Shown piece by piece: positions 7,170 through 30,669 of a DNA stretch of 64,000 nucleotides. The notes beneath the pieces are model-generated. The model saw nothing but the letters and a program-made list of their open reading frames with translations. It had not been told where the DNA came from and did not search any database. The DNA is taken from the NCBI GenBank assembly GCA_016928395.1, contig JAFGKV010000096.1, positions 1 to 64,000 of the forward strand, given 5' to 3'. The DNA comes from Candidatus Fermentibacterota bacterium. GTDB lineage: Bacteria > JAFGKV01. Numbering within the stretch: the first letter of the stretch is position 1; each line of letters opens with the position of its first letter. Position numbers and translations under genes: made by a program.

Positions 7170-7185
7170 CCCCAAGGATGCTCCC

Positions 7186-8177: not shown

Positions 8178-9536
8178 CTATCGAGTGTTTCGGAGCGTCT
8201 CCTCCAGCGTCTCAACCAGCGACTTGATGCCGGCTCTGGTTTCCATGAGATGCCGTACCTGGGCACAGGCATGAATCACGGTAGAGTGATCACGCCCGCC
8301 GAAATAGCGCCCGATATCCGTGGTGGAAAGCGAGGTCAGACTTCGCGTGAGGTACATGGCGACCTGCCGCGCCTGAGCGATCTGCATGGTGCGGCGCTTC
8401 GAGGTGAGGGCACCGGCCTGAAGGCCCGTGGCGGAGGCGGTCGCCCGGATGATCTCCTCCACCGAGACTGTGGCCGGGGTGCTCTGGATGATGTCAGCGA
8501 GGATGCGCTTCGCTTCCGCCAGGTCGAGGTCTTTCCCTAATGCGGCATGGGCGGCAAGCCTCACGAGGCATCCTTCGATCTGGCGGACGTTCCTGCTGGC
8601 ATTGTTGATGATGAAGGTCATTACCTCGGGTGGGCAGGAGAGGCCCATCATGGCCGTCTTCTTGTACAGTATTGCCGCACGGGTCTCGAACTCGGGGGGT
8701 TGAATGTCGGCAATGAGGCCGGACTCGAAGCGGGAGATAAGACGTTGCTCCAACTTTGTCTCGTGGGGCGGGCGATCACTGGTGATGACGATCTGGCTCT
8801 TCTTCCTGTGCAGCGTGTTGAAAGTGTGGAAGAACTCCTCCTGCATGCTGTCCTTGCGCGCGATGAAGTGAATATCATCGATGAGCAGAAGTTTCAGCGA
8901 ACGGTAGCGCTTCCTGAACTCGTGTGGCGTGTTCTGGTAGATTGCGCTGACCAGGTCATTCGTGAAATCCTCGGAGCTGACGTAGCGAACCGTGGCGCCC
9001 GGGTGATGGCGCATGAGCAGGTGGCCAATGGCGTGGAGCAGGTGGGTCTTGCCCAGACCCGTGCCACCATAAATGAAGAGCGGGTTGTAGTAGGTCCCCG
9101 GGTTCTTTGCCACCGTGACGCATGCTGCGTGGGCCAACTCATTGCTCTTGCCCACGACAAAACTGTCAAAAGTGAAGGCGTCATTGAGGAACCCCACGGC
9201 GGGCGGCGGAAGCATGTCAGGTTCGGGAACAGCAGGGGTCTCGACAGGGGCCGTACCGGTGGTAAGCCGCAGCGGCACGCGGGCTCCAGCTACCACCTCC
9301 AAGGCCCGAAGGATGTCGTCCTTATTGTGCGACTCAATCCACTGCACATGGAAATCGCTGGGCAGAACGATGACCAACGCACCATTGTCATAGCCCGAAG
9401 GGTGGGCGGAAGAGAGCAGCGCGAATGCGCCTGGTCCCAGTGCTCCACCGCGATACAGGAGATCGACGCACGCGGCCCAGAGGCTCTCGGGGCTCTGTGT
9501 GGCTGAGGCCCGGGCAGTAGTCAACAGGTTATCCAC
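8178..9536 (-). CDS. dnaA: Chromosomal replication initiator protein DnaA
   Basis: YNPLFIYGGTGLGKTHL, LLIDDIHF, QEEFFHTFN, RLISRF arginine finger, NVRQIEG sensor II and domain IV FGGRDHSTVIHA. Divergent from rpmH. GTG start at 9536 chosen; the ORF is open to 9590. Confidence 0.97.
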   Translation of the reverse strand: MDNLLTTARASATQSPESLWAACVDLLYRGGALGPGAFALLSSAHPSGYDNGALVIVLPSDFHVQWIESHNKDDILRALEVVAGARVPLRLTTGTAPVETPAVPEPDMLPPPAVGFLNDAFTFDSFVVGKSNELAHAACVTVAKNPGTYYNPLFIYGGTGLGKTHLLHAIGHLLMRHHPGATVRYVSSEDFTNDLVSAIYQNTPHEFRKRYRSLKLLLIDDIHFIARKDSMQEEFFHTFNTLHRKKSQIVITSDRPPHETKLEQRLISRFESGLIADIQPPEFETRAAILYKKTAMMGLSCPPEVMTFIINNASRNVRQIEGCLVRLAAHAALGKDLDLAEAKRILADIIQSTPATVSVEEIIRATASATGLQAGALTSKRRTMQIAQARQVAMYLTRSLTSLSTTDIGRYFGGRDHSTVIHACAQVRHLMETRAGIKSLVETLEETLRNTR

Positions 9537-9885
9537 AGGTTCCCCCCCGCGGGATTCGGCCCAAGCGACTCCCCGCACGGGGCGGCACATGGCAGGCCTT
9601 GCGGTTTACGGCAATCGCTTAAGACTGAGGTTGAAGTCATTCGAGAAAACCCTTGAGAAACAAGGACATAAAGGGGATGATGATTGTGAAGATGCTGTGA
9701 GCGCGTCTCGACGATGCACCGGGATGAAGACCTTGAAGGGTCATGGAGTTCCGAAATCGCCATCACACTTGTCCACAGGTTGTACACAGCCTTTGTTGAC
9801 ATCTCCGCAGCCTTCGGTCACAGAGGTTTTGGCCGATGAGACGGTGCTATTCAGTAGCACGGCGGAGGGGATTCTGTCAACAGAA
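9518..9885. other. Candidate oriC / DnaA-box cluster in the dnaA-rpmH intergenic region
   Basis: TTATCCACA at 9529-9537, tandem TTGTCCACA 9769-9777 and TTGTACACA 9780-9788, and weaker GTCAACA-type boxes at 9518-9526, 9794-9802 (reverse) and 9874-9882. Canonical dnaA-rpmH location. Confidence 0.7.
9529..9537 (+). promoter_or_regulatory. Perfect DnaA box overlapping the proposed dnaA start codon
   Basis: TTATCCACA; its reverse complement T-GTG-GAT-AA contains the in-frame GTG. Confidence 0.8.
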
Positions 9886-10806: not shown

Positions 10807-10809
10807 TCT

Positions 10810-12405: not shown

Positions 12406-12426
12406 GGGCGGAAGGGAGAGGGCTGA

Positions 12427-13350: not shown

Positions 13351-13407
13351 CAGGCGCCCCGTCACGGGACATTCCACCAGAATGGGGCCAGCGTCAGGAG
13401 CGTGACT

Positions 13408-14892: not shown

Positions 14893-14895
14893 GCC

Positions 14896-16266
14896 ATGTT
14901 GGACACGCACACCAGAGAAGTCCTCACGGGCGTCATCGATGATGCTCGCCACAAGGGCATTCAGGCCTCACTTCTCCTGCACCGGGAGCGAAGCCATCTC
15001 CTGCGGATCGGCAACAGCTCGGTGTCGCTGAACACCAGCGAGTCGCTGACCAGGCTCAAGGCCCGAGTGGTGGACGGTAGGCGCGAGGCAACTCACACGT
15101 ATCTGGGCGAGCTGGGCACCGACGACGCGCGGGAGACACTAGAGGCAGCCGTGGCCAAGGTCCGCGAGGCGCCCGAGCGTGATTTCGAGCCGATCTTGGA
15201 GCATGTGGACGAGACAGTGATACAGGAGGATCAATACGATCCGGCTCTGGCCGAGCTGGATGGGACGTCGAAAGCCGCAGGCTATGCGCGCATCATGCGG
15301 GAGATCGGCCCGTCGGTGACCTACTCAGGGGCCTGGTCCAGCGGTGCCACGGAAACCTACCTGCTCTCCACCGCTTCCGAAGCCGAGGCCTACCATCGCT
15401 GCACTGATCAGCAATTCTCCGTGGTGCTCAAACACCCGGCCGCCGAGTGGGAACTACGCACCGATGACACCGGATGGCGGGTCCTTGACTTCTCGGCAGA
15501 GCGGTCCATCGCGGAGATCCGACGTCTGCTCCCGGTCTACGAGAGCCGAGACGGCATCAAGATCGAGCCCGGGCAGTACACCGTGCTGTTTGGCGCCCAG
15601 GCTCTGGCCGAGATCCTCGGGATGGCGCTGTGGACGGGGCTCTACGGCCGTATGTACGAGGAGAAGCAGGGATGGACCGCGCATCACAAGGAGGGCGACC
15701 GGGTTTTCGGCGCCAACATCAGTATCACGGACGATCCTGAGGACGCGAATACCTTCCGCTATGGTTTCGATCTGGGCGGTATGCGCCGCGGGCGCTATCC
15801 GCTACTGGAGCACGGCCGCATCGCGGGCTTCATGTACGACATAGAGACCGCGGCCAAGTACAAGCGGCCCCTGACCGGGCACACGACCCAGACCATGAGC
15901 GTGGTGATGGACGGCGGCGACGGCGCGGCCGACCCTCTTGCCGCCGTTGCGGATCGTGCGCGGGTGCTCTGGATTCCGGCCCTGCATTACATGAACGTGC
16001 CCAGCAGAGCCAAGGGTCTCTTCACCGGCAGCTCGCGGTTCAGCGCGGTGGTGGTGGAGCGAGGCCGGATTGTCGCGCCGCTGTTCTCCAGCCGCGTCAC
16101 GGAGAGCTTCGAGAACGTGTTCAACAACCTGTCGGTGCTATCGCGTGAGCAAATCTCGGTGAATCTGTCCGATACCTACGGCCAACGGGCCCCGGTCGCC
16201 TGGAGCGTTCCCTCCTACGCCGTGGCCGACGGCATCCACATCACCGACACTGCCGATTCGTTCTAG
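14896..16266 (+). CDS. TldE/PmbA-like partner subunit of TldD
   Basis: Follows tldD directly. IEPGQYTVLF, ISITDDP and GFDLGG are present, and there is no HExxxH motif. Confidence 0.8.
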   Translation: MLDTHTREVLTGVIDDARHKGIQASLLLHRERSHLLRIGNSSVSLNTSESLTRLKARVVDGRREATHTYLGELGTDDARETLEAAVAKVREAPERDFEPILEHVDETVIQEDQYDPALAELDGTSKAAGYARIMREIGPSVTYSGAWSSGATETYLLSTASEAEAYHRCTDQQFSVVLKHPAAEWELRTDDTGWRVLDFSAERSIAEIRRLLPVYESRDGIKIEPGQYTVLFGAQALAEILGMALWTGLYGRMYEEKQGWTAHHKEGDRVFGANISITDDPEDANTFRYGFDLGGMRRGRYPLLEHGRIAGFMYDIETAAKYKRPLTGHTTQTMSVVMDGGDGAADPLAAVADRARVLWIPALHYMNVPSRAKGLFTGSSRFSAVVVERGRIVAPLFSSRVTESFENVFNNLSVLSREQISVNLSDTYGQRAPVAWSVPSYAVADGIHITDTADSF

Positions 16267-16329
16267 TCGGAGCCCGCAGGACTGTGTTCGATACGGGCCG
16301 GCACTGGCGCGCCCGTGTGGTACGTCCGG

Positions 16330-16358
16330 TTGACGGGAGGTCCTCCGGCTCATAGACT
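16330..16358 (+). promoter_or_regulatory. Putative sigma70 promoter upstream of 16438
   Basis: TTGACG-N17-TAGACT, with AAGGAGG before the GTG at 16438. Confidence 0.6.
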
Positions 16359-16437: not shown

Positions 16438-17970
16438 GTGAGGCTACCTGGAAAGCGATCGTCCGCTGCTCCACCCCCGCGATCCGACCCGGCGGAGGAG
16501 GCGGTGCACGGAGCGTTCCGTTCCTTTCCCGATCCGTTCCTGATAATAGAGCAGGATTCCTACCGAGTAATCGCCGCTAATGCCAAGGCTCGCGATCAGG
16601 CGCCCGCCGCGGCAGTCACATGCCACGAGATGTTGTGGGGATTGCAGGCCCGCTGCCAAGGCCAACAGTGTCCTGTGGATTACGTGATGGCGACATGGAT
16701 TCCCATGCGGGCTGAACGAGCCGTGACCAGGGATGACGGCAGTACGCGCGTCTTCGAGGTGCAGGCCTTTCCCATCAGGGAGGTCATTGGCGATGTGCGC
16801 TTCATTGCGCTGATCACGGCCGATATCACCGACCGTAAGAAGGAAGAACACTCGGCGGTCTCCGGTGAGCATTTCAGGGCGGTGGGTGAACTGGCTGGTG
16901 CGGCCGCGCACAGATTCAACAACCTGCTGCAGGTGGTGGTCGCCGGGGCCCAGATGGCGCTGGCCGATCTTGAGGCCGGGGATACGGCCCTGGTCCGTGA
17001 TGCCCTCGAGGATATCCTCACCAGCATCGGCAAAGGACAGAATGCTGTCATGGGCCTGTTAGACGTCGCCCGGGCCGGCTCCGATGCCGCGTCGCCAGAG
17101 GCGGTGCTGTGCGATCTATCGGTTGCTGTCGGCCAGGCCATCAGCGTCTTGTCCCCTTCGTGGAGAGACGAAGGTCAGGCCGGCGTCCCCCGGACAAGAC
17201 TGAATGAGGCTCTGTCTTCCGGATGCGTGGTGCGGGCTACGAAGCGCGAATTGCTGGAATTGGCCACAGGTCTAGTACGCCATGCAATGGGCGCGGCCCC
17301 GGAGGGAAGCGTCGTGCGGGTTGCCACGGCAACCCTCGATGGTGCGGTGGTTCTCACCGTCTCTCACCCGGGCGAGCCCGATGACAACCAGCCCTTACGG
17401 GGATCAAGCATGCCCATGGAAGGCGGCCAATGGATGCCGACTGAGCTGGCCGCCGTGCATCTCATCGCGGAGCGTTTGGGTGGAAGTCTTACAGTCGGCA
17501 GCGCCGATATCGAAGGGTCTTCCTACGTCGTGCGCCTGCCTTCGACAGGCAGCCACCTTTCGGAGGACGGTACGTTCAGCGAGGTGGAGCCACTTTCCCT
17601 GCTACTGATTGACGATAATCCAGAGGTGCTAGCGGCTCTGGAAGACGGACTGCGCCGAGCGGATCAGATGGTTGTGACCGCACCCTCCGGACGAGCCGGG
17701 CTTCAGATACTTCGGAGCAGGCAGGTGGATGCCGTCGTGTGTGATTTCCTCATGCCCGAGATGGATGGCCTCGACGTGGGCCGGGAGATCGCCGAGATCT
17801 TCCGGGACCGCGGTGGCACGAAGCCTCCCTTCGTCCTGCTGACGGGATGGCTCAGCGAGCGGGAACGCAGCAGAATCGAGGCGGCCGAGGTCGATCGCAT
17901 CCTACAGAAGCCCTTGGAACCCGCGAGGCTCCTGGGGGTGATCCGGCAGCTCATCGAGTCCCGCCAGTAG
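16438..17970 (+). CDS. PAS - degenerate histidine kinase - receiver hybrid (probable pseudokinase)
   Basis: PAS (DITDRK), H-box AAHRFNNLL, eroded N/G1/G2 boxes and an intact receiver (LIDD, CDFLMP, LTG, QKP). Confidence 0.8.
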   Translation: MRLPGKRSSAAPPPRSDPAEEAVHGAFRSFPDPFLIIEQDSYRVIAANAKARDQAPAAAVTCHEMLWGLQARCQGQQCPVDYVMATWIPMRAERAVTRDDGSTRVFEVQAFPIREVIGDVRFIALITADITDRKKEEHSAVSGEHFRAVGELAGAAAHRFNNLLQVVVAGAQMALADLEAGDTALVRDALEDILTSIGKGQNAVMGLLDVARAGSDAASPEAVLCDLSVAVGQAISVLSPSWRDEGQAGVPRTRLNEALSSGCVVRATKRELLELATGLVRHAMGAAPEGSVVRVATATLDGAVVLTVSHPGEPDDNQPLRGSSMPMEGGQWMPTELAAVHLIAERLGGSLTVGSADIEGSSYVVRLPSTGSHLSEDGTFSEVEPLSLLLIDDNPEVLAALEDGLRRADQMVVTAPSGRAGLQILRSRQVDAVVCDFLMPEMDGLDVGREIAEIFRDRGGTKPPFVLLTGWLSERERSRIEAAEVDRILQKPLEPARLLGVIRQLIESRQ

Positions 17971-18021
17971 CGGCGCCGTGCTCACCGCGCCATCCGAAGT
18001 GCGCGGAACCTGGGGAGGAGA

Positions 18022-20271
18022 TTATCCCGGTGTTGCCGTGGCCTCGTCGACAAACTCGGGGTACAGTTTCTTCATGCATTCCGGACAGATTCCGTGGGTG
18101 AACTCGGCCTCGGATCGTTGATGGATGTATGTTTCCACCTTCTCCCAGTAACCGGTGTCGTCACGAATGCGTTTGCAGCTTGAGCAGATGGGAAGGAGGC
18201 CGCTCAGTGTCTTGACCTTCGCCAGGGCGGTTCTCAGCTCCCCTATCAGCCGCTCGCGTTCCTGCTCCGCCGTCTTTCGCTCCGAGATGTCCCACACGTA
18301 GGATCGAGTCCCGACGACCTTGTTGCCCTCCCTGAGCTCTATGGCATCCACCTCCAGGTGGATGGGGAGACGGTCCTTGCGGATCCCCATGAACTCGTAG
18401 TGGGAGAAAGGCGTCATTCCCTGTACACGTCTTCTGTGCTGGGTCAGCACCCGGTCGAGTTCCCGTGGATGCACAATGGTCTCGATGGTCTGGCGGCTCA
18501 TCTCTTCGCGGGAGTAACCGAACATCTGGGCAAAGGTGTCGTTGAAGTAGCGGAACGTCCCCTTCGGGTCGTCGATGAGGATTCCGATGCGTGCCCTTTC
18601 CACCAGGTCACGGAAGCGTTCCTCCGACCCGCGGAGTGCCTCGGTCACGTCCCACCGTTCTACCCGGCGGGCAATCCGTCCGGCGACCTCTTCCAGCAAC
18701 CTGATCTCCTCCCGGAGGAAGGGGTCGCCGGCGCCAGGTGGCGGTTCAACCACGTAGCAGACTTCCACCCGGCCTTCAGTGGTCCCCGCTACCACCAGGG
18801 GAGACTCCATGCGCCATGCCGATCGCCGGAAGTCGGGCGTAGCCGCGGTCTCATCTCGGAGCGAAATACACGCAGCCGCGATCTCGGGAAATTGCATGCC
18901 GGCAGGGATTGCCTCCACCGCCGCGAACAGCAGGGCCGCCAGGGATCCTTCCGCGCGGCCGAGCGCAGTTGACACCGCGGAGAGGCAGTTGAGTTCCTTC
19001 ACACGCTCGGTGAGTTCAACAGCGAGACGTTCCCGCTCCTGCTCCGCCCGCTTGAGGTCCGTGATATCCCGGATCACGCCGTTCATGCGCCGCACGACCC
19101 CATCGGCATCGAACTCCAAATCGATGCGGTCGCTGACCCATCGCGTCCTCCCGTCTCTGGTGATAATCCGGTAGTCGACCTGGTGGGGCCCAGGATCGCC
19201 AGGTTTCCGGAAGCACGCGTAGAGGAAGCGATAGACCCGGGCGGCGTCTTCGGGATGAATGACCCGGCGCGTGTGGCGAAGTGGGTTTCCGGTCAGGTAA
19301 TCCCTGGGGTAGCCTGTCAGCCGTTCAAAAGCAGGGCTGATGAAGTCGTAGCGGTTGGTGGGGACGTCATACCGGTAGATGACATCGCTGACGATCTCAA
19401 CGAATCTACGAAGTGACTCCTCGGCCTTGACCAGTGCCTCACGGGCGGCCCTCGGCGCAGTGATATCCTCGGCGGTCCCCTCGATGAATCGGGTCGTGCC
19501 GTCCGCGGCGAGTACTATGCGTGCGCTCTCTCGAACCCAGACTGTACGGCCATCAAGACAGCGCCACTGGGTTTCGAAGGCGTGGACGATTCCGTCCTGA
19601 TGCAGTAGCTCGAGAAAGCACATCCGCTCCCCGGGATCGGCGTAGCCCCCAGCCGCGCTCTGCGTCACGAGATCCTCCGGACAGGAGTACCCCAGTATCT
19701 CGCTGAGGACCCTATTCACGTAGAGGATCCGACCTTCTAACGTCGTGCGGTAGAGGCCCACGGGAAGATTGTCCGCCAACTGGCGGAATCGATCTTCCGC
19801 GACCCCCAGCGCGCGGGCGGCACGGACCTCGTCGGACACGTCTTCAGAGACGACGACAATCTCTCCAGACGGAAGGGGGTATACCCGATGCTTCACCCAG
19901 TGATCAACGGAAACGCTGGCGTAGCAAGCCGGCCCGTGAACGCGTGGGTCTTTAGCTTTGTGAACCTCCCGCAGCACGGCCAACAGCCCCGATCCGGCCA
20001 CGGCGGGGAGCACTTCGGTCAGACGCCTGCCGACTGCGTCTTCCCTGGGGATCCCGCTGATGCGCTGCCCAGCGGGGTTGATGCTCTTGATGAGGAAGTC
20101 GTCGCCGTCATCGACGGCAGCATAGATGGTAACACCGCCACTCATGTGCTCAATGAGTGCCCGGTAGGCAGCTACCTCGCGCTCCAAGGCCTCATCGCGA
20201 GTACCAGCATCTCTTTCCCGCGTCGTTGGCCGCGCTCCAGGGCTGCCCGCGCGGTTTCGAGGAGACTTCAT
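18022..20271 (-). CDS. Multi-PAS/GAF-like sensor protein with C-terminal Cys/His-rich domain, no kinase
   Basis: Four PAS/PAC modules (EDVS, EDIT, RDIT, WDIS). C-terminus LPICSSCKRIRDDTGYW...FTHGICPEC. Confidence 0.85.
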   Translation of the reverse strand: MKSPRNRAGSPGARPTTRERDAGTRDEALEREVAAYRALIEHMSGGVTIYAAVDDGDDFLIKSINPAGQRISGIPREDAVGRRLTEVLPAVAGSGLLAVLREVHKAKDPRVHGPACYASVSVDHWVKHRVYPLPSGEIVVVSEDVSDEVRAARALGVAEDRFRQLADNLPVGLYRTTLEGRILYVNRVLSEILGYSCPEDLVTQSAAGGYADPGERMCFLELLHQDGIVHAFETQWRCLDGRTVWVRESARIVLAADGTTRFIEGTAEDITAPRAAREALVKAEESLRRFVEIVSDVIYRYDVPTNRYDFISPAFERLTGYPRDYLTGNPLRHTRRVIHPEDAARVYRFLYACFRKPGDPGPHQVDYRIITRDGRTRWVSDRIDLEFDADGVVRRMNGVIRDITDLKRAEQERERLAVELTERVKELNCLSAVSTALGRAEGSLAALLFAAVEAIPAGMQFPEIAAACISLRDETAATPDFRRSAWRMESPLVVAGTTEGRVEVCYVVEPPPGAGDPFLREEIRLLEEVAGRIARRVERWDVTEALRGSEERFRDLVERARIGILIDDPKGTFRYFNDTFAQMFGYSREEMSRQTIETIVHPRELDRVLTQHRRRVQGMTPFSHYEFMGIRKDRLPIHLEVDAIELREGNKVVGTRSYVWDISERKTAEQERERLIGELRTALAKVKTLSGLLPICSSCKRIRDDTGYWEKVETYIHQRSEAEFTHGICPECMKKLYPEFVDEATATPG

Positions 20272-20488
20272 CCTCCGTTATCCTCCGCTCTTCGGCTGGG
20301 CACCAGCGTAAGACGACGCGGGTGCGAGACTCTGGCCACACACATCCCGCGGACGCACCGGGGCCAGGGGAGCCCCCGCCACGACGATCAGGGAGGGGAT
20401 CCTTGACGCGGGCCTGAAAGGCACTGACCTTATGCCCCGCGCGTTAGTACGGTACGATTCAGGCCTCCGCATTAGTGAACGGGGTCCC

Positions 20489-21661
20489 ATGGCTTCCGAG
20501 CACGTTGAATCAGAATCGATTCTGGTGGTCGACGACGAACCGCAGATCCGCTCGCTTCTGGGGCGCTTCCTGCGCAGGCGGGGCTCCACGGTACTGGAGG
20601 CGGGCTCCGGCGCAGAAGGACTGGCGCTCTTCCAGAAGCACTCACCGGCTGTGGTGATATCGGACATACGCATGCCAGGCATGGGTGGTTTCGACCTACT
20701 TAGGGCCGTCCGGAAGATCGACGCCGAGGTAGAGGTGGTCCTTATCACGGGGTATGGCGAGATCTCCGACGCGGTGGAAGCCATCCGCACTGGCGCTTCA
20801 GACTTCATCGCCAAACCCTTTGATCTTACCTTGGTGGACCATGCGGTGGACAGCTGCCTGGAACGAAGGCGCTACAAGGCGATGGCGCGGGGCTATACGC
20901 GCCGGCTCGAGGAGGAGGTGACCCGGCGAACGGAGGAGTTGGCACACGCGAACAGGGAACTGGAGAAGCTGGGCAAGACCCGGGAGGACTTCCTGGCCCT
21001 CATCTCCCACGAACTGCGGACGCCCCTGGCCGGCATGGGACTCGCAGAGCTGGCCTTTGAAGAGATAGACTCGTTGACGCGAGGACAGGTGCAGGAGATG
21101 CTCTCGGGGATCATTGAATCCTTCCGGCGCCTGCATGCCTTCTCGGAGCGAGCGCTGCTCTACTCGCGCCTCGCATCGGGCGGGCCGGTTCGGCGCAGGG
21201 AGGGGGTCGATTTCTCGGAGCTCGTTCACGACGAAGTCTCCCGTATCGCTAAGACCGCCGCCGACGCCGACATCTCCGTCCGTTGGGCCCCTTTCGCTGG
21301 GTCGATGACCACGAATGGCGATCCGGAACTCCTCCGATTCGTGATTCGCGCCCTTCTGGACAATGCCGTGAAACACAATCGGCGTGGAGGCTCGGCAGAA
21401 GTACACCTTGAACCCCGTGACGATGGGTTCGAGTTCTCCATCACGGATACCGGCGTAGGCATTCCTGGGGAGGCGATTGACAGGGTTTTCCGGCCACTGG
21501 ATTCGCCCGACATCCTGCACCGCCGCTCAGGAACCTCCCTCTCGCTAGCCATAAGCAGGTTGATCAGTCAACAGCACGGTATGCAGCTCTCATGCAGCAG
21601 CGAGGGCACCGGCAAGGGGGCGACATTCACTCTCACCTGTCCAGCACACCAATCGACATAG
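20489..21661 (+). CDS. Receiver - histidine kinase
   Basis: Receiver (VVDD, SDIRMP, KPF), SHELRTPL, DNAVKH and DTGVGI. G2 box altered to GTSLSL. Confidence 0.88.
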   Translation: MASEHVESESILVVDDEPQIRSLLGRFLRRRGSTVLEAGSGAEGLALFQKHSPAVVISDIRMPGMGGFDLLRAVRKIDAEVEVVLITGYGEISDAVEAIRTGASDFIAKPFDLTLVDHAVDSCLERRRYKAMARGYTRRLEEEVTRRTEELAHANRELEKLGKTREDFLALISHELRTPLAGMGLAELAFEEIDSLTRGQVQEMLSGIIESFRRLHAFSERALLYSRLASGGPVRRREGVDFSELVHDEVSRIAKTAADADISVRWAPFAGSMTTNGDPELLRFVIRALLDNAVKHNRRGGSAEVHLEPRDDGFEFSITDTGVGIPGEAIDRVFRPLDSPDILHRRSGTSLSLAISRLISQQHGMQLSCSSEGTGKGATFTLTCPAHQST

Positions 21662-21671
21662 CTCCATAGAA

Positions 21672-23480
21672 TCACGATCCCGGTGATTCGGGATCGCCTT
21701 CCAGGGCATAGCGAAGCCAAGTTCTGGCGTTCGAAGGCGTGACATCCGATCCCACAATCACGGGGACCTCGCCGGGAACCCGGAAGAGGCGGCGCATGCT
21801 GTTGGCCAGGAGGCATTTCGCAGAGGAATCAGCGCGATGTTCCGCGCCGGCGAACAGCACCACCACAGCCACAGCGACACCTCGAGGAACGGAAGCAACG
21901 AGAAGTCGCGCATCGATGATCCTCGACCCCGCGCTGTCAAACACCAGCAGATAGAGCGGCACCTGGCTCCCAGCCACAGCCCACGAAAGATCGTCTCCAA
22001 TGTTCCAACGATTGGTTCCCACGATTATCCACTCCGGTTCCGGCGCCTCAGGGTGGAGCAGGCAAGCCCATCTCTCGCCTTCAGGGATTGCCGACACTTG
22101 CCCCCTGATGCCGGCGATGGCATCCATGGTGTCGATTACCTGCGCGGGAGATGTGCCAAGAACGATGATGGGGGCTGTCTTCGGCGAGGGAACGATGGCA
22201 GCGATCTCCTCCGGCGTACCCCAGGTGCTGGCAAGGTCACCGCTCTTGATGAACACCTTGACGAAGTCGTGAAGCTCCCCCGGCGGCGCGGGCGGCTCGA
22301 GGGTCCTCCGCGGCGGCTCCCCGGGGACCGCATCGTCGCGAATCGCCATGATCACCTTGTCAACCACGGCCCGGTCAAGACTGATCGAACCAAGAGTGTG
22401 CATCGCGACCAGCTTCTTGACCGCGCCCTCCAGAGTTCGGACATCGCTGTCCAGAGCCGCGGCAAGGTAATCCAAGAGGTCGAAAGCGATGGGCCATCCG
22501 CTCTGCAATGCCTTGGTCTTCAAGATCGTCGCCCGGAGTGCGGCGTCAGGGGCGTCAACGCTCATCACCAATCCGGCCGCAAGACCCGTGGTAATCTCGT
22601 TGATGAGGGTTGAGACCTCCTCGGGGCGGCGGTCGCCGGAGATCACGATCTGCTTCTGCTGGCGGTACATCTCTGAGAACACCCCCGCGGCGACGGTCTG
22701 CAAGCTCGATGATACCGCCAGGAACTGGATGTCATCGATGAAGAGGGCATCACACTCCATGTAGCCCGCTCTCAGCCTCTCCACAGTCCTGTGCTCGTAG
22801 GCATCTATGATCTGCTGGCTGAATACTTCGGATGTGAGGTAAAGAATCCGTGTCTGGGAATTCCTGGAATACAGCTCGTTGGCCAGCGCGCACATGAGAT
22901 GGGTCTTGCCACGGCCCGGACCGCCGTACAAGAACAACGGGTTGTGCCGCCGGCCGAGGTTGTCCGCTACCGCCTTGGCGGCTTCCACGGCCCGGGAATT
23001 TCCCTTGCCCACCACGAAGGTACCGAAGGAATACCGTGACAGGCGCTCCAGGGCCGAAGCGTAGAAGGGGCCTTCAGTAGAAGGCTGGGTCATTGCGCGG
23101 AACTGGGCTCGTCGGCGCAGCAGTGCTCTGACACGTGCCAGGAACAGCTCAACATTGAAGGGCTTGACTAAGTAGTCGTCGGCGCCCAGTTCCAGACCTT
23201 TGATCTGGTCTTCTTCTTCCGCCTTGCCGCTCAGGATCATCAGCGGTGTGTGACCTACCACGGGATCTGACCGTAGCCGCCGGACCAGCTCAAAACCGTC
23301 AAGCCTGGGCATCATCACGTCAGTGATCACCGCGTCGGGATGCTCTCCCTGTACCGCGTACCAGCCCTTCTCGCCATCCTCGGCCGTCACCACCTCGAAG
23401 TGCTCTCGCTCAAGGACGCTGCTCAAGAGCCGCAGGATATGGGGGTCGTCATCAACTACGAGTATGCGATCGGCGGGCAC
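21672..23480 (-). CDS. Response-regulator receiver fused to a DnaA-type AAA+ domain and a C-terminal degenerate GTPase-like domain
   Basis: Receiver with D54 (TDVMMP). YSFGTFVVGKGN, NPLFLYGGPGRGKTHL, FIDDIQF, ISGDRRP and DVRTLEGA align with DnaA domain III. No RDHSTV domain IV. GTG start with AAGGAG. Confidence 0.88.
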   Translation of the reverse strand: MPADRILVVDDDPHILRLLSSVLEREHFEVVTAEDGEKGWYAVQGEHPDAVITDVMMPRLDGFELVRRLRSDPVVGHTPLMILSGKAEEEDQIKGLELGADDYLVKPFNVELFLARVRALLRRRAQFRAMTQPSTEGPFYASALERLSRYSFGTFVVGKGNSRAVEAAKAVADNLGRRHNPLFLYGGPGRGKTHLMCALANELYSRNSQTRILYLTSEVFSQQIIDAYEHRTVERLRAGYMECDALFIDDIQFLAVSSSLQTVAAGVFSEMYRQQKQIVISGDRRPEEVSTLINEITTGLAAGLVMSVDAPDAALRATILKTKALQSGWPIAFDLLDYLAAALDSDVRTLEGAVKKLVAMHTLGSISLDRAVVDKVIMAIRDDAVPGEPPRRTLEPPAPPGELHDFVKVFIKSGDLASTWGTPEEIAAIVPSPKTAPIIVLGTSPAQVIDTMDAIAGIRGQVSAIPEGERWACLLHPEAPEPEWIIVGTNRWNIGDDLSWAVAGSQVPLYLLVFDSAGSRIIDARLLVASVPRGVAVAVVVLFAGAEHRADSSAKCLLANSMRRLFRVPGEVPVIVGSDVTPSNARTWLRYALEGDPESPGS

Positions 23481-23580
23481 GGCAGCTCCTTATCTATCAG
23501 ATACAAGGCATGGCCACAGGTGGCGAGGGATTCACGGGGCACCTTAATGTGCGCCGTCTCCGCCTCGCCCACAAGATTGT

Positions 23581-23608
23581 GGAGTGCGGAGTGGGGAGTG
23601 GCGAGTGA
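23581..23608 (+). repeat. Four heptamer units (GGAGTGC/GGAGTGG/GGAGTGG/CGAGTGA), same family as the 49352 array
   Basis: Directly visible. Confidence 0.6.
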
Positions 23609-23666
23609 GGAAGGGTACATCACGGCGTGGGTGCGGCCCCCACAGGCGGGTGGGCCGGCCGCGTGC

Positions 23667-26600
23667 TCATGCCCCTTCCTTGCTCGACAACCCTGCCGAT
23701 CTCATGGCCGCGATGACCTCACCGAGCTGAGCCTCTGCGGCTGCGACCAGCGAGTCCGCCCGCCGGCCGTCTCCCGCGGCGCATGCCTGTTCGATTCGGG
23801 AAGCCGTGGCCATGATCGAGGCGGCGCCCACGGAGCCTGCCGCGCCCCTGAGGGTGTGCGCTGTGCGTGCCGCAGCGCGCAGGTCGGATCGACTCAGCGC
23901 CTCTCTCATCGCCGAGATCCGCCGAGGGACATCGTCGACGAACATTGCAGCAAGCTCGTTCGCCAGTGCCTCATCATCCATCGTGCGTTCCATCAGGCCC
24001 GTCAGATCGAACACGAGAGAGGGGGTGTCCGGCGGAGGTGGGATCCCTGCGGCTGCGACGTTGTCAGTTCGATTGACCCAGCGCTCGACGGCGGCGCGGA
24101 GTGCGCCGGGGGTGACCGGCTTGGCAATGTAGTCGTTCATCCCCGCCTGCAGGCATTGTTGCCGGTCGCTCTCCATGGCGTACGCGGTCATCGCTATGAT
24201 GGGGATGTCGTGCTTTAGAACAGAAGATGAAGGATCACGAATCGCCCGGCTCGCTTCATACCCATCCATCTGTGGCATCTGGCAGTCCATCAGCACAAGG
24301 TCATATGGGGCCGTCTCCAGTGCCCGGAGGGCCTCAAGACCGTTGGCGGCGACATCCACCCTGCAGCCGAGCTTCTCGAGAACTGCCGACGCCACTCGCT
24401 GGCTGGTGGCGTTGTCCTCAGCGACCAAGATGCGGCCCCCGCGTCGATCGGGTGCGTGGCTGCCGGCAGCAGACGCGACAGTGCCGTCAGGGCAGACGCC
24501 AAGCACCATCTCAAGGCTTTGGCGTAACTGCACCTGTCTGATCGGCTTCGTCAGGAAGGCGGAGAACTCCCCGGCCACCGCACGCGCATCCATCGTGACC
24601 TTCCCCAGCGACGAGAGCATGATCAGCATCGTGGCGCTGATCCGCGGATCTTCCTTGATTCGCTTCCCCAGCTCGAGCCCGTCCATCCCCGGCATCTGCA
24701 TGTCGATGAGCGCCACGGTGAACGGCTGTCCCTCCGTCTGGGCCTGCGTCAGGGCCTCGAGCGCTGCCGGGCCGTCGGCCACTTCGGCATGCGTGCACCC
24801 CCAGGATGCCAGAAGCACGGCCAGGAGCCGCCGATTGGTCTGATTGTCATCCACGACGAGAATGCGTGCACCCGCGATGTCGCCTGCGGGTGCCTCAGCG
24901 GCGGTGGGCGACGCGGTGGACTTCTCGAACACCACTGTGAACCAAAACACTGAACCCTGCCCCGGGTTGCTGGTCACGCCGATGTCCCCGCCCATCATCT
25001 CAGCGAGTCGTTTCGAGATGGACAACCCCAGGCCCGTGCCGCCGAACCGCCGCGTGGTCGAGGTGTCGGCCTGTCCGAACGGGCGGAACAGGAGCGGCAA
25101 CGCATCCGACGATATGCCGATGCCAGTGTCCTTGACCTCGAAACGAAGTGTCACCGAGGAAGGGGTCTCACTATCCACGTCGGCGTGTATCGATACTTCT
25201 CCCCGATCGGTGAACTTGACCGCATTGCCCGCCAAGTTGAGCAGGATTTGCCGGAGCCGCCCCGCGTCTCCCCGCACTATGCGCGGCACATCGGGCTCCA
25301 CCATGCTGATGAGTTCTATTCCCTTCCCGTGCGCATCGACCGCCAAGAGGGCCGCAGTCTCGTCCAGGACCGCATGGATATCGAAGTCCAGTACTTCCAG
25401 GTCCATCCGCCCGGCTTCGATCTTGGAGAAGTCAAGAACGTCATTGATGATGGCAAGCAGGCTTTCGCCGCTGGATCGTACGATCTCCGCGTACTCTCGC
25501 TGCTCGGGAGAGAGTGGAGTGTCGAGCAACACGCCTGCCATGCCGATCACGCCGTTCATGGGAGTGCGGATTTCGTGGCTCATGTTGGCAAGGAACGCGC
25601 TCTTGGCCTTGCTGGCCTCCTCCGCCATCACCGCCAGTTCGTTGGCGCGATCGCTGGCCCGTTCAAGTCTCTCATTGGTCACTTCCAGCTCGCGATTCGC
25701 CATGCGGAGCCGAATCTCCGCCCTCCTGCGCTCAGTGATGTCCGTGAGGATGCCGACCAGCCGCCTGACTACGCCATCGGCATCCACAATCGGGTTCAAT
25801 GCGGCGTGCCACGTCATGTCGCGACCATCGGGCCGCAGATAGGCCGACTCGAAGGAAACCTGCTCGCCCCGCGCGGCGCGCGTGAGCTCTGCCTCTATCA
25901 CCTCGCGGGTTGGTTCAGGCCACAGCTTTGGAAAGGCTTGGCCGAGGATGTCGTCCGTCGCCCACCCAAGGGCTGCGGCCCCGTTACGGTTGACCATAAG
26001 AAAGCGGCCGGTCGGATCGAGCAGCACCACGCAGTTCGGGGAGCCTTCCACGAGCCCTCGGTACCGTCTCTCCGAATCCCCGATCACAGTCGAGGTCTCC
26101 TGGGAGCGCTGCTGGACCGCGAAGAAGACCAGAATCAGTGCGGCGACCAGAAGCGTGATGAGAAGCGGGCCCATGCGACTCATGGCGATCACCTGCGCCC
26201 AGCGGGATGCATCTACATCCTGTCCGAGCACCCCCACAACCCGGCCCGAACGGTTCTGGACGATGGGCACGAGCCCGCTTACCCACGTGCCCCACCGGTC
26301 GGTGGCAGGCCCTTCGACGAACTCCTCACCGGTTCGGAAGACCTCTACCAACTCGGCGCTGGCTTCCTCGTATGTTTGGCCGGGGGGAGAGTAGTCCTCC
26401 GAACTCTCGGGCTCCGAATCGGCAAGGAAGATCACCTGGCGGTCACGCATCCCCATCAGGTAGGCGAACCGGCAGTCCGGGAAGGCCCTCCTCACGGCGA
26501 CGAGCTGCCGCTTCAGCCTCCCGTAGTCGGGACTGACGAGGTCGGCTTCGGTACCGGCCAACCGCAGGATCGAGTCAGCGTCTATGGCGGCGGCGGCCGT

Positions 26601-27410
26601 TCGGGTCACGGTCAGGATCACCCGGCGCTGGCCGTGGTCCGCCGCCCGTCCCGACTCCTGCGCGAGGATCCACCCAAGACCGAGGGTGATGACGAGGCCG
26701 CCCACGGCCACGCGGCTGATGCGTCCGGCGGCGCGGGCGGCCCGGTCGCCAAACGCGAGCCTGCGGAGCAGCCGGTACCGCCGGCAGAGCGCCCCAGCGA
26801 TCGCAAGCGCGAAGACCGCCCGCGCGAGTTGGATCGAGATTCCCGCGAGGGTGCCCGCGTCCGGGAGCGGGACAGCCATGGGCGGTCCCGCCACCGCGGC
26901 GAGGCCAAGCCCCGCCATCGCCACCGCCGCGATGCCGCTGCCCCGCGCCTCGTGGGGCAGCCCCAGGACGGGCGCACGCCACAGCAGCCATGCAGCGGCC
27001 AGCGTGGACACTGCGCCGAGGGAGTAGCGAATCGCGGCGTCAGGGTCGGCGGCCCCCATGCCGACGCTGCCGCATGCCAAAGCCAGCAGGACAAGATGAA
27101 CCCAGAAGCCCGGGCCGCGCTTCACGACGGAGGCGATCCCCGACCGGGCGAACTCCGCCAGGCACAGAAACGACACTGCATTCAGAAGTGGTCCAACAAC
27201 CGCCGACACGGGGGAGGGTTCGAGACTGGGCGTCAAGAGGCCAAGCCATTCGTGGAGCGCCTGAGAGAACCCGAAGAGTGCGCACCACTTCCATGGGAGG
27301 TGACTATCCGTTCGCGCCAGCGACCGTCCGATGACGCCGAGGCATGCAAATGCCAGCCCTGAGAGCAAAAGCAGGAAGTCCGTTTGGTGAGAGAGGAAGT
27401 CAACAATCAT
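23667..27410 (-). CDS. Unorthodox hybrid histidine kinase: multi-TM region, extracytoplasmic sensor, PAS, HisKA, HATPase, two receivers, Hpt
   Basis: FLANMSHEIRTPMNG, NLAGNAVKF, GGTGLGL, IDMQMP, MDCQMP and Hpt AHTLRGAAGSVGA. Start MIVDF chosen; the ORF is open to 27479. Confidence 0.93.
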   Translation of the reverse strand: MIVDFLSHQTDFLLLLSGLAFACLGVIGRSLARTDSHLPWKWCALFGFSQALHEWLGLLTPSLEPSPVSAVVGPLLNAVSFLCLAEFARSGIASVVKRGPGFWVHLVLLALACGSVGMGAADPDAAIRYSLGAVSTLAAAWLLWRAPVLGLPHEARGSGIAAVAMAGLGLAAVAGPPMAVPLPDAGTLAGISIQLARAVFALAIAGALCRRYRLLRRLAFGDRAARAAGRISRVAVGGLVITLGLGWILAQESGRAADHGQRRVILTVTRTAAAAIDADSILRLAGTEADLVSPDYGRLKRQLVAVRRAFPDCRFAYLMGMRDRQVIFLADSEPESSEDYSPPGQTYEEASAELVEVFRTGEEFVEGPATDRWGTWVSGLVPIVQNRSGRVVGVLGQDVDASRWAQVIAMSRMGPLLITLLVAALILVFFAVQQRSQETSTVIGDSERRYRGLVEGSPNCVVLLDPTGRFLMVNRNGAAALGWATDDILGQAFPKLWPEPTREVIEAELTRAARGEQVSFESAYLRPDGRDMTWHAALNPIVDADGVVRRLVGILTDITERRRAEIRLRMANRELEVTNERLERASDRANELAVMAEEASKAKSAFLANMSHEIRTPMNGVIGMAGVLLDTPLSPEQREYAEIVRSSGESLLAIINDVLDFSKIEAGRMDLEVLDFDIHAVLDETAALLAVDAHGKGIELISMVEPDVPRIVRGDAGRLRQILLNLAGNAVKFTDRGEVSIHADVDSETPSSVTLRFEVKDTGIGISSDALPLLFRPFGQADTSTTRRFGGTGLGLSISKRLAEMMGGDIGVTSNPGQGSVFWFTVVFEKSTASPTAAEAPAGDIAGARILVVDDNQTNRRLLAVLLASWGCTHAEVADGPAALEALTQAQTEGQPFTVALIDMQMPGMDGLELGKRIKEDPRISATMLIMLSSLGKVTMDARAVAGEFSAFLTKPIRQVQLRQSLEMVLGVCPDGTVASAAGSHAPDRRGGRILVAEDNATSQRVASAVLEKLGCRVDVAANGLEALRALETAPYDLVLMDCQMPQMDGYEASRAIRDPSSSVLKHDIPIIAMTAYAMESDRQQCLQAGMNDYIAKPVTPGALRAAVERWVNRTDNVAAAGIPPPPDTPSLVFDLTGLMERTMDDEALANELAAMFVDDVPRRISAMREALSRSDLRAAARTAHTLRGAAGSVGAASIMATASRIEQACAAGDGRRADSLVAAAEAQLGEVIAAMRSAGLSSKEGA

Positions 27411-27554
27411 GGGAGACCCCGCCACCTGACGTGCATGCCTCACTAGGGCACTCTGGGCGTGAGCCCTGGCCCATCCCATCGGCTACCAAGGAGACGGAAG
27501 CCAGTTCCATCGGCATTGCTCCCCACCGGTTGTGTTGCGCCATGACAGCCGGGG

Positions 27555-27588
27555 CGGCAATCGTGGGCGGATCGCCCGCCGATTGCCG
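27555..27588. other. GC-rich stem-loop in the divergent intergenic region
   Basis: CGGCAATCG-TGGGCG-GAT-CGCCCG-C-CGATTGCCG. Confidence 0.55.
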
Positions 27589-27847
27589 GTTCCGTTCCGA
27601 CGCAATCGGGGGCCTCGTTCAGTGTTCCAATGGTTCCGCGACGCGTCAGCGTACTCAGCGTACAAGGAAGCCCCGATCGCACGGTGGACGTGACGGCCAT
27701 GCCCCATCGGGCCCGTCAGCGGGCAGTGCACAGTGTCTGTTTAGTCCGGGTACCAAAGATACTGCCAGGCGGCGGCGACGCCAGATCCTTGGAGGCCCCC
27801 AGGATCCCGAGGTTCTCCGGCGGCCTGGGCAGCATCGGACCCTGCAC

Positions 27848-27875
27848 GACACTATTCTAATATTAGAATAGTGTC
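27848..27875. repeat. Perfect 28-bp AT-rich palindrome
   Basis: GACACTATTCTAAT/ATTAGAATAGTGTC is its own reverse complement. Confidence 0.95.
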
Positions 27876-28086
27876 CCGATTCTCTCATGCCCCCCGAGGA
27901 GGAGCCAGGAGTTTCGACAGTCCCCCGGCGTATCCTGCCCCACGGCGAAGGTTGCCCGCCTCTTGAGGCAGACGTATACTCCAGGGTCTCGAAAGCAGCC
28001 TTCGTTTCCCATGGCGACGGCGCGCGCCGGCCATCCGGGCCGACGCGCCGGCGAGGGACCCTCTGAACGAGGAGGCGCCAGGCATC

Positions 28087-30669
28087 ATGACACGCCCCCA
28101 TGCCCGACTCCCCACGTGGGCCACGGTGGTGCTACCGCTCGCGTTGCTGGTCTTCGCCGTGGGAGGCCTGTGGTTTTACCGCGCCCAAGACCAGGCCATG
28201 CGCCGCAAGGTCGAGGAGGAGCTGGCTACCATCGCCGGGCTCAAGGCGGAGCAGATCGTTGCCTGGCGCCGCGACCAACTGGAGGATGCCGGCCTGATCG
28301 CGGAGAACGCCACGCTAGTCGTGGCCACGGCGCGCTACTGGGCCGATCCTGGCGACGAAACCGGCGACCAGCTTCTCCGCGTCTTTCGTCGCGTCCAGAA
28401 AGGCCATGACTACGCGGACATCCTGCTGGTGGATGCGAACGGGCATGTCTGCCTGAGTCTGGCCGGCGCCGCAGGCGACGGCCATCCGGAGATGCTCTCG
28501 GCGTTGGAAACCTCCCTGCGCGAGCGGAGGCCCGTTCTCGTCGACCTGCACGCGGGCGACCTCGACCCGTCGCCGCATATCAGCGTCGTCGCACCCGTCT
28601 TCTCAGACGCTGCGGGCGGCGAGCCTGCCGGCGCGCTGGTGTTGATGAGTGAGGCGCGAGCCTTCCTTTACCCCCTTGTCGAAAGCTGGCCCAGGCCGAG
28701 CAAGACCGCGGAGACCCTGCTCATCCGGCGAGACGGTGACGAGGTGCTCTTCCTGAACGACCTCCGCCACCAGGCGGGCACGGCGCTCACGCTGCGCATC
28801 CCGATAGATCGAACCGACGTCCCCGCAGTGATGGCGGCGCTGGGTCGGCGGGGGGTCGTGTACGGCCGTGACTACCGCGAGGTTTCGGTTGTCTCGCACG
28901 TCTCCGCTATTCCCGATTCCCCATGGCTCATGGTGGCAAAGGAGGATGCCGACGAAGCGTTCTCCGAATGGCGGTTTCGCTCAGTGATGATCCTCGCCTT
29001 CCTGGCGGGATTGGCTGCGGCCGTGGGCGCGGTCATCCTCGTGGTCTGGCAGCGGAACGAGAAAGGCCACTACCGCACACTCTATGAGACCGAGTCGGCG
29101 CTGCGGGCGTTGTCCGCGCGTCAGCAGGCCCTGCTGGCCGCGGTACCTGACATCATCATGGAAGTCGACGTGAACAAGAGGTACACCTGGGCGAACCGTG
29201 CGGGCATTGAGTTCTTTGGGGAGGATGTGGTCGGCACGGAAGCCGCTTCCTACTTCGACGGGGAGCAGGATACCTACGAGACGGTCGCGCCGCTCTTCAA
29301 GGGCCAGGAAGGCGTGATCTACGCGGAGAGCTGGCAGCGGCGCCGAGATGGGGAGAGGCGCCTGCTCGCGTGGTGGGGCCGCGTGCTCAAAGACGCCAAG
29401 GAGAACGTTATCGGCGCGCTCTCCTCCGCGCGGGATATCACCGAGCGTTCGCGGGCGGAGCAGCAGCTCCTCATCCAGAAACGGATCGCCGACATCTTCC
29501 TCACGATCCCCGATGACGAGATGTTCTACGAGGTCTTGCAGGTCGTGCTTGAGGCCATGCAGAGCCCGTTCGGCGTCTTCGGGTACATAGACGAGGCAGG
29601 CGCGCTGGTCGTGCCGACCATGACCCGGCTCATCTGGGACAAGTGTCAGGTTCCCGAGAAGACCATCACGTTCCCGCGCTCCACCTGGGGAGACAGCAGT
29701 TGGCCCAGGGCGATCCGGGAGAAGATGCCGAACTACTCCAACGAGGTCTCTACCAGAACCCCCGCTGGGCATGTCACACTCACGAGACACATTTCCCTGC
29801 CAATCCTGTTTCGTGGCGACGTCATCGGTCTTTTCCAGGTGGCGAACAAGGCGGTGGACTACACGGCAGCGGATATCGCCGCTTTGCAGACCGTCGCCAC
29901 CTACGTGGCCCCGGTTCTGAGCGCGCGGCTGCAGCGCCAGCGGCAGGAAGAGAATCTACGATCTCTGAATCAGGAGCTGGCGAGGGCCAACGCCGAACTC
30001 CAGCGTTTCGCATACGTTGCGTCACACGACCTTCAAGAGCCGCTACGAATGATCGCCAGCTACCTGCAGCTCATCGAGGGCCGGTACAAGGACAGGCTGG
30101 ATGCCGATGGCCTGGAGTTCATGGCCTTTGCCGTTGATGGCGCCAACCGCCTGCAGACGATGATCCGTGACCTTCTTGAGTACTCCCGTGTGGGAAGCCG
30201 GGGGATGCCCCTTGAGGAGGTCGACGCCGAGGAGGCGCTGGATCAGGCCCTGCAGAATCTGCAGGTGCAGATCGCGGACAGCGGCGCGGTTGTGACCCAC
30301 GACCCCCTGCCGCGCATCACGGCCGACCAGACGCAGATCGTGCAGGTGTTCCAGAATCTGATCAGTAATGCCATAAAGTTCAGAAGCAGTGAGCCCCCGC
30401 GTATCCATATCACGTCTCGCCGCCAGGACGACGAATGCGTCTTCTCTGCACGGGACAACGGCCTGGGGGTGGCGCCGGAGCTCAATGAGCGCATCTTCAT
30501 CGTGTTTCAACGCCTTCACGGCCAGGAGTACCCGGGAACCGGCATAGGTCTGGCCATCTGCAAACGTATCGTGGAACGCCACAAGGGGAGGATCTGGGTG
30601 GAATCCGAGGCAGGCACAGGCGCCACGTTCCACTTCAGTATTCCTATCGCTACAGGAGGGAATGTGTGA
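28087..30669 (+). CDS. Membrane sensor histidine kinase (Cache-like, PAS, GAF, Cph1-type HisKA/HATPase)
   Basis: Two TM segments, FAYVASHDLQEPLR, NLISNAIKF, YPGTGIGLA. Confidence 0.92.
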   Translation: MTRPHARLPTWATVVLPLALLVFAVGGLWFYRAQDQAMRRKVEEELATIAGLKAEQIVAWRRDQLEDAGLIAENATLVVATARYWADPGDETGDQLLRVFRRVQKGHDYADILLVDANGHVCLSLAGAAGDGHPEMLSALETSLRERRPVLVDLHAGDLDPSPHISVVAPVFSDAAGGEPAGALVLMSEARAFLYPLVESWPRPSKTAETLLIRRDGDEVLFLNDLRHQAGTALTLRIPIDRTDVPAVMAALGRRGVVYGRDYREVSVVSHVSAIPDSPWLMVAKEDADEAFSEWRFRSVMILAFLAGLAAAVGAVILVVWQRNEKGHYRTLYETESALRALSARQQALLAAVPDIIMEVDVNKRYTWANRAGIEFFGEDVVGTEAASYFDGEQDTYETVAPLFKGQEGVIYAESWQRRRDGERRLLAWWGRVLKDAKENVIGALSSARDITERSRAEQQLLIQKRIADIFLTIPDDEMFYEVLQVVLEAMQSPFGVFGYIDEAGALVVPTMTRLIWDKCQVPEKTITFPRSTWGDSSWPRAIREKMPNYSNEVSTRTPAGHVTLTRHISLPILFRGDVIGLFQVANKAVDYTAADIAALQTVATYVAPVLSARLQRQRQEENLRSLNQELARANAELQRFAYVASHDLQEPLRMIASYLQLIEGRYKDRLDADGLEFMAFAVDGANRLQTMIRDLLEYSRVGSRGMPLEEVDAEEALDQALQNLQVQIADSGAVVTHDPLPRITADQTQIVQVFQNLISNAIKFRSSEPPRIHITSRRQDDECVFSARDNGLGVAPELNERIFIVFQRLHGQEYPGTGIGLAICKRIVERHKGRIWVESEAGTGATFHFSIPIATGGNV

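Follow-up and report, generated by a model that had tools for sequence, protein, structure and literature searches.

A response regulator that carries DnaA domain III with a conserved ATP site and a divergent donor face in a Candidatus Fermentibacterota genome

The protein encoded at 21672..23480 on the minus strand of contig JAFGKV010000096.1 (Candidatus Fermentibacterota bacterium, assembly GCA_016928395.1; positions 1 to 64,000 are referred to as the window) has 602 residues, begins at a GTG codon and, judged by its domain content, is a response regulator in which an OmpR/PhoB-like receiver (REC) is fused to the AAA+ module of DnaA domain III and to a lineage-specific GTPase-like C-terminal domain. 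In an alignment of this target with 47 full-length homologs, the ATP site of the AAA+ module is invariant and the residues corresponding to the donor face of DnaA are replaced or highly variable. We give about an even chance to the view that the target would be a phosphorylation-controlled ATP-binding switch that hydrolyzes ATP poorly or not at all and signals through its GTPase-like domain.

The receiver (residues 6–117, 23130..23465; this and all other features of the gene are on the minus strand) matches Pfam PF00072 with an E value of 4.9e-30 and scores 104.4 bits against a cut-off of 30.2. Residues D10, D11, D54, S84, Y103 and K106 are all present, and each is kept in 45–47 of the 48 aligned family members, the phospho-acceptor D54 (23319-23321) and K106 in 46 each. 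The AAA+ module (domain IIIa and lid, residues 145–379, 22344..23048) is recognized by TIGR00362, by PF00308 and by a Foldseek match to 8bv3_A. The Bac_DnaA family (PF00308) matches at E 1.6e-43 with 149.1 bits, the gathering cut-off being 23, and the DnaA model TIGR00362 at E 1.4e-67 over positions 103–337 of its 437, where 228.7 bits against an equivalog cut-off of 343.9 leave the target short of the DnaA threshold. Bacillus subtilis DnaA chains 8bv3/8btg match at E 3e-44, with 37% identity over domain III. In the AlphaFold2 model of the target (mean predicted local distance difference test score, pLDDT, 85.6), the AAA+ module overlays domain III of 8bv3_A with a template modeling (TM) score of 0.90 by target length and a root-mean-square deviation (rmsd) of 1.9 Å in Foldseek. 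By score, Walker A and B motifs, sensor I, sensor II and structural overlay, the module belongs to the Bac_DnaA AAA+ proteins of the initiator clade. The contribution from DnaA is domain III alone: domain II is missing too, and for domains I and IV neither DnaA_N (PF11638) nor Bac_DnaA_C (PF08299) is among the 17 Pfam families that match the target at E ≤ 0.1, both of which are present in the true DnaA proteins found by the family search. Two further identities were considered and rejected. Against the Hda model TIGR03420 the target reaches 85 bits (E 5.5e-24) for a cut-off of 194.8, and it has G299 at the finger position; Sigma54_activat (PF00158), for an NtrC-type regulator, is not among its Pfam matches at E ≤ 0.1, the AAA+ module being of the DnaA type.

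An earlier note on this DNA had reported that the DnaA paralog keeps Walker A, Walker B, the sensor I Asp and the sensor II Arg and has lost both box VII arginines, and both observations hold. The note dealt with the AAA+ module alone and mentioned neither the receiver, the missing domains I and IV, the C-terminal domain nor the many paralogs. The canonical DnaA of the window (8178-9590, minus strand, 470 residues) contains IARKDSMQEEFFHTFN and SDRPPHETKLEQRLISRFESGL, with both box VII arginines intact; the target (21672-23480, minus strand, 602 residues) contains LAVSSSLQTVAAGVFS and GDRRPEEVSTLINEITTGLAAGL. These peptides are found verbatim in the window, and the span 22560-22730 corresponds exactly to residues 251–307 of the target. 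In the degenerate box VII, EITTG (residues 295–299, 22584..22598), E295 takes the place of the Arg281 equivalent and G299 that of the Arg285 finger, and an alignment with B. subtilis DnaA that has no gap across box VII likewise pairs the two arginines with E295 and G299. Two additional contact residues of DnaA domain III, Arg227 and Lys243, also have their equivalents replaced. M241 (22758..22760), eight residues before Walker B, is at the position of Escherichia coli DnaA AID-1 Arg227, where the DnaA of the window has Arg, and VSSS (residues 256–259, 22704..22715) stands in place of the basic B-motif and Lys243 region, which reads ARKDS in the DnaA of the window. The E. coli numbering of the Arg227 site was placed on the target by an offset. 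On the side of the nucleotide, Walker A GGPGRGKT (residues 186–193, 22902..22925), the D249 D250 pair of Walker B (22731..22736), sensor I D283 (22632..22634) and sensor II R348 (22437..22439) are intact. PMC5742627 describes Arg285 of E. coli DnaA as essential both to the ATPase activity that the protein has intrinsically and to ATP-dependent head-to-tail contacts and assembly, and is also our source for the role of AID-1 Arg227.

The family was collected from 5.8 billion proteins by a search seeded with words, which covers only candidates sharing words with the query and from which the best 120 matches were listed; among these, P0003–P0049 are the full-length REC plus Bac_DnaA proteins. The alignment consists of the query, P0004–P0049 and P0052 (48 family rows), with the DnaA of the window as outgroup; P0003, which duplicates the query, was omitted, as were P0050 and P0051, which are short. 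Database names of the members are 'DnaA/Hda family protein [Candidatus Eisenbacteria bacterium]', OmpR-family regulator or replication initiator. Throughout the 48 rows, the Walker A residues G186, G191, K192 and T193, both aspartates of Walker B, the sensor I Asp and the sensor II Arg are invariant. The Arg281-equivalent column (295) is Glu in 42 rows and Gly in 6 and is never basic, the Lys243-equivalent column (S257) is Ser in all 48, where DnaA has Lys, and the AID-1 Arg227-equivalent column is Leu in 27, Thr in 8, Val in 6, Ala in 5 and Met in 2, with Arg in 0 of 48. Leu is kept at the AID-2 Leu290-equivalent column in 40 of 48. The finger column itself (299, the Arg285 equivalent) holds Gly in 17 rows, Ala in 11, Arg in 8, Ser in 6, Glu in 3 and Cys, Asp and Thr in 1 each, eight residue types in all; its entropy is 2.42 bits, where the median is 1.18, and it ranks 36 among 232 AAA+ columns. 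Since its neighbors on the box VII helix (290, 294, 298 and 302) are as highly variable as the finger column, the donor face is under relaxed constraint. On a quick maximum-likelihood tree from which the columns scored on it had been left out, the distribution of Arg versus non-Arg at the finger column needs at least 4 changes and that of all states at least 16. The invariance of the ATP site, together with the role of Arg285 in E. coli DnaA, indicates a nucleotide pocket that is strictly selected and a donor face that has been left to drift. Conservation of the finger loss among homologs, which the earlier note had proposed as a check and whose absence it named as a refutation, is partial: 40 of 48 members have no Arg, and the eight that do are one clade in which all five have it (P0030, P0032, P0033, P0034 and P0045) plus P0013, P0052 and the nearest relative of the target, P0004.

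A gene for a hybrid histidine kinase (PAS-HisKA-HATPase-REC-REC-Hpt, 1270 residues, 23667..27479, minus strand) lies 186 nt upstream of the target on the same strand and is the likely phosphodonor, as read from its domains and position; in G001, a genome of the same genus, an open reading frame with two REC matches is directly upstream of the target's ortholog. In the mechanism that we favor, this hybrid kinase/Hpt protein would phosphorylate D54, and phosphorylation would, in the manner of NtrC-type REC-AAA+ regulators, change how the AAA+ module self-associates or how far it is exposed. The AAA+ module is predicted from its motifs to bind ATP. Without equivalents of Arg285, Arg281, Arg227 and Lys243 it would make no DnaA-type ATP-sensing contacts through its donor face and would not undergo trans-stimulated hydrolysis, and because of these losses it would act as a slow or non-hydrolyzing ATP-dependent switch or assembly module. 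The signal would then exit through the GTPase-like domain by protein-protein contact. Several points weigh against the proposed switch. We infer ATP binding, the lack of hydrolysis and control by phosphorylation from motifs in every case, and the arrangement of the domains in the model of the target is uncertain (predicted TM score, pTM, 0.52). P0004, with 62% identity, has Arg at the finger, so that Gly299 of the target may be recent drift inside one genus-level lineage, and with a finger Arg in eight of the 48, some members may be active ATPases. The target also lies about 13 kb from dnaA and might thus still be linked to replication.

The C-terminal domain (residues 415–598, 21687..22238) is separated from the AAA+ module by a linker at residues 385–400 that is disordered in the AlphaFold2 model, and it was characterized by predicted structure and fold searches. 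Modeled alone (about 200 residues) from a 12-sequence alignment, it gave a pLDDT of 80.9 and a pTM of 0.82, and its best Foldseek matches were EngB/YsxC, Nog1, Toc34 and Rho (E 6e-5 to 7e-4, TM about 0.5). In a VIA-align comparison with representatives, all 50 matches listed are GTPases, with Z scores of 8.1–10.2 over 123–170 aligned residues at 7–16% identity. On the evidence of the model, the domain has the small-GTPase fold (a G domain). A language-model feature search in a protein atlas gave weak leads to Arf, Ras and ATP_bind_1 clusters, with scores of 0.81–0.84. The motif definitions applied to the domain were GxxxxGK[ST] for the GTPase P-loop and NKxD-like for guanine recognition. In the target the first loop reads VLGTSPA, and each of the 12 aligned members has G-x-S there and no Lys; because the P-loop lysine is absent we call the domain GTPase-like and not a GTPase; no NKxD-like motif could be seen by eye in the alignment of the domain. 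There was no Pfam match for the C-terminal domain of the target, and a PDB sequence search found no match to the target past residue 390. A phmmer search of 1.84 billion representatives with the domain returned 15 matches, of which 14 are family members or N-terminally cut fragments. The fifteenth, a BNR/Laminin_G protein (P0131, E 3.9e-5 over 35 residues), was judged spurious. As far as these sequence searches reach, the C-terminal domain is found only together with the REC-DnaA-III AAA+ module and is lineage-specific.

The genome of the target (G000, 4.79 Mb in 343 contigs) contains 14 Bac_DnaA matches at E ≤ 0.001. When the limit is tightened to E ≤ 1e-10, 11 matches are counted in G000, 9 in G001 and 12 in G002, the three genomes of the lineage, and among 28 other bacterial genomes 2 have none, 21 have one and 5 have two. 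Four of the G000 proteins are co-paralogs with the full REC-DnaA-III-GTPase-like architecture, namely the target and copies on contigs C78, C218 and C20, and histidine-kinase genes adjoin three of these four. Two shorter REC-DnaA-III proteins have no GTPase-like domain (C150, L013 6825-8045; C311, L014 5271-6785), and four proteins join DnaA-III to MshEN, three of them encoded in tandem on C299 and one on C108. The four co-paralogs with a conserved output domain of their own, set in a genome with 14 Bac_DnaA matches, point to a signaling family rather than to a dedicated DnaA regulator. On this evidence the target belongs to a lineage-specific expansion that recruited DnaA domain III as a signaling module and, in the reading that we favor, is not a dedicated replication factor. 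Among the titles and abstracts surveyed in the literature, none described REC-DnaA fusions or the present expansion of DnaA paralogs, and similar fusions in other phyla could be missed by protein searches that cover only word-sharing candidates.

Other members of the expansion were also observed. The C150-type REC-DnaA-III protein has about 18 database relatives, all of them REC plus Bac_DnaA. The cluster on C299 (G000:C299:68000-84340; open reading frames 6940-9891, 9876-11144, 11144-12415 and 12416-16339) encodes three MshEN-DnaA-III proteins and one MshEN-only protein and lies beside a prepilin peptidase gene (6062-6838). Its 983-residue protein has two DnaA-III modules. No protein of the genome matches Bac_DnaA better than the cluster's 1308-residue MshEN-DnaA-III protein, in which the two arginines of box VII and the basic motif are retained; the C-terminal stretch of this protein is very long, charged and rich in Ala and Glu and appears helical or coiled-coil by eye. 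MshEN is a domain family known to bind the second messenger cyclic di-GMP, and a cyclic di-GMP input to the DnaA-type module is possible in these proteins. The word DnaA is absent from the main text of the MshEN paper PMC5013675. A set of tandem double DnaA-III proteins (P0053, P0054, P0055, P0057, P0150, P0152 and P0153; 640–755 residues) has no domain IV.

The target is part of a two-component block at 16438-30669 that includes a PAS-REC protein, a 749-residue multi-PAS protein, a REC-histidine kinase, the target, the hybrid kinase with Hpt and a dCache-GAF kinase. The gene of the REC-histidine kinase (20432-21661) is convergent with the target, and the multi-PAS protein (18022-20271, minus strand) has a Cys-rich tail with CxxC...CxxC spacing, in which there is no Pfam match at E ≤ 1e-5. 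The canonical dnaA (8178..9590, minus strand) diverges from a yidD, yidC and jag cluster (10255-13350, plus strand), and with both in the window the region of the target is taken to be origin-proximal. The distance of about 13 kb between target and dnaA recurs in G001; in G002, 0 of the 4 co-paralogs are on the dnaA contig. A perfect DnaA-box consensus is present at 9529 and a box with one mismatch at 9769. DnaA boxes are not enriched in the window, where 6 matches with at most one mismatch compare with 4.6 expected and 36 of 100 shuffles reach 6, and the single one-mismatch box inside the target gene, at 22025, was taken as chance. A GGDEF diguanylate cyclase gene (7186-8097, plus strand) is directly beside dnaA and may bear on the MshEN-DnaA-III proteins elsewhere in the genome.

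Among the alternatives to the switch, the one we consider rather unlikely, and no worse than that, is that the four co-paralogs assemble into a hetero-oligomer with a logic like that of the origin recognition complex (ORC) or a clamp loader, in which only the Arg-bearing member would give rise to a catalytic ATP site; the members without a finger, the target among them, would be subunits that bind ATP and do not donate. A weak hint in this direction is that each of the three genomes examined has four co-paralogs and exactly one with a finger Arg: in G000 the C20 copy reads SARF and the others have Gly, Ser and Gly, in G001 the C199 copy reads SVRF next to Gly, Gly and Ala, and in G002 the C65 copy reads SRRF next to Gly, Gly and Glu. 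The Arg-bearing member of G002 is in another clade than those of G000 and G001, and the clade of P0030, whose five members all keep the finger Arg, is matched by 0 of the 4 copies of G002. Against this assembly, chance alone would put just one Arg among the four copies in about 39% of genomes at the family frequency of 8/48, so the pattern is not significant, and the sample is three genomes, two of which are from one genus. A scan of contigs for further genomes gave 6 loci, in G001 and G002 only, and a scan of metagenomes gave 2 short contigs. The four genes are moreover unlinked and lie beside different kinases, which suggests separate pathways, and the Arg-bearing members likewise have no equivalents of Arg281, Arg227 and Lys243.

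The earlier note had gone on to propose that the paralog could accept a finger from DnaA but not donate one and would therefore cap or polarize DnaA filaments. Its first half is consistent with the sequence, in that the module is predicted to retain ATP binding and to be unable to donate a DnaA-type finger; no support was found for DnaA as its partner or for a filament cap. A phosphorylation-gated cap or polarity terminator, which would accept the finger of the terminal DnaA protomer and offer none in return and through which two-component signaling would throttle replication initiation, is in our estimate improbable. It would fit the intact ATP site and the loss of both box VII arginines, as well as an AAA+ module that comes from DnaA proper rather than from Hda (E 1.4e-67 for TIGR00362 versus 5.5e-24 for TIGR03420). 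The gene is also about 13 kb from dnaA in a dnaA / yidC / jag region in both genomes of the genus, and the AID-2 Leu equivalent is kept in 40/48. Helices 217–229 and 233–240 of the model, following a strand at 212–216, sit where DnaA has its initiator-specific helix pair, an assignment that we make by position. Set against these points, finger loss is not conserved (8/48 have Arg, the nearest relative among them) and its column is highly variable, and without domain I, domain IV and the basic residue of the B-motif the target alone would not be able to reach oriC or single-stranded DNA. An expansion of about tenfold, with four co-paralogs and six other DnaA-III fusions in the genome, is hard to fit to a single replication task. 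Linkage to dnaA holds only within the genus, none of the G002 co-paralogs being on the dnaA contig, and a cap would leave both the receiver and the conserved GTPase-like output domain unexplained.

It is also doubtful, to a similar degree, that the target is a nucleotide-locked pseudo-enzyme scaffold in which ATP would be structural only and the AAA+ module, neither cycling nor assembling, would serve as a passive adaptor between the receiver and the GTPase-like domain. The lost donor-face residues would agree with such a scaffold, and the presence of a second degenerate NTPase-like domain, the GTPase fold without a P-loop, could reflect a general move toward non-catalytic roles. What argues against it is that Walker A, Walker B, sensor I and sensor II are strictly invariant in 48/48, which exceeds what a structural nucleotide usually requires; the sensor II Arg and the acidic pair of Walker B are normally kept for sensing of the γ-phosphate or for hydrolysis. 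Least probable of all is that the phosphorylated target mimics a DnaA protomer and docks its ATP face on the terminal DnaA finger, where filament growth would stop because the mimic has no finger, no Arg281 equivalent and no motif for binding single-stranded DNA, with the co-paralogs bringing other signals to the same step. In that case two-component signaling would act on initiation of replication without an intermediary, through a cap that mirrors Hda.

To our knowledge, DnaA domain III has hardly been described outside initiation by DnaA and the control of this step by Hda. Here it would be a reusable signaling module, fused to receiver and MshEN domains, and the family offers a series of naturally occurring variants that retain the ATP site but not the donor face, in which an ATP-binding-only function of the initiator clade can be tested. 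Should any member act on DnaA, it would stand for a new class of regulators that connect initiation to the sensing of the environment; if none does, the family would provide a new type of output for response regulators. Either way, the architecture is an uncharacterized one, in a candidate lineage for which metagenome-assembled genomes are the sole source, and its interest lies less in the idea of a cap than in the recruitment of a DnaA module and its expansion across the lineage.

Compared with DnaA itself, the target shares the Walker A and B motifs, sensor I Asp, sensor II Arg and lid of domain III, whereas the box VII arginines, the AID-1 Arg and the Lys243/B-motif equivalents are replaced and a receiver and a GTPase-like domain are added. 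Hda/HdaA, the DnaA-related regulator of RIDA, and the target are alike as domain III paralogs without a DNA-binding domain, and Hda is the precedent for a paralog that acts on DnaA by a contact between AAA+ modules. Hda has retained its arginine finger, which it applies, with the beta clamp, to the ATP bound by DnaA; the target reverses this pattern, with the ATP site kept and the finger lost, and has a receiver at its N-terminus. The layout of a receiver ahead of an AAA+ oligomerization module is that of NtrC, NtrX and NtrC1-type regulators. Foldseek comparison of the receiver plus AAA+ region with NtrX, NtrC1, NtrC4 and LuxO gave TM scores of 0.26–0.28 by query length and rmsd values of 16–20 Å, so that only the order of the domains is common. 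Unlike the NtrC-type proteins, the target has an AAA+ module of another clade, no DNA-binding domain and no arginine finger, and initiator-clade modules are known from DnaA to form open spirals and not closed rings. With Ras/Arf-like and EngB-type GTPases the C-terminal domain has the α/β fold in common, the P-loop GxxxxGK[ST] being theirs only. The tandem double DnaA-III proteins (P0053, P0054, P0150 and relatives), which are the next-best matches apart from DnaA, resemble the target as domain III paralogs without domain IV, but have two modules, no receiver and no GTPase-like domain; in the three named here, each module has Arg at its two box VII positions, apart from one of the four positions in P0054.

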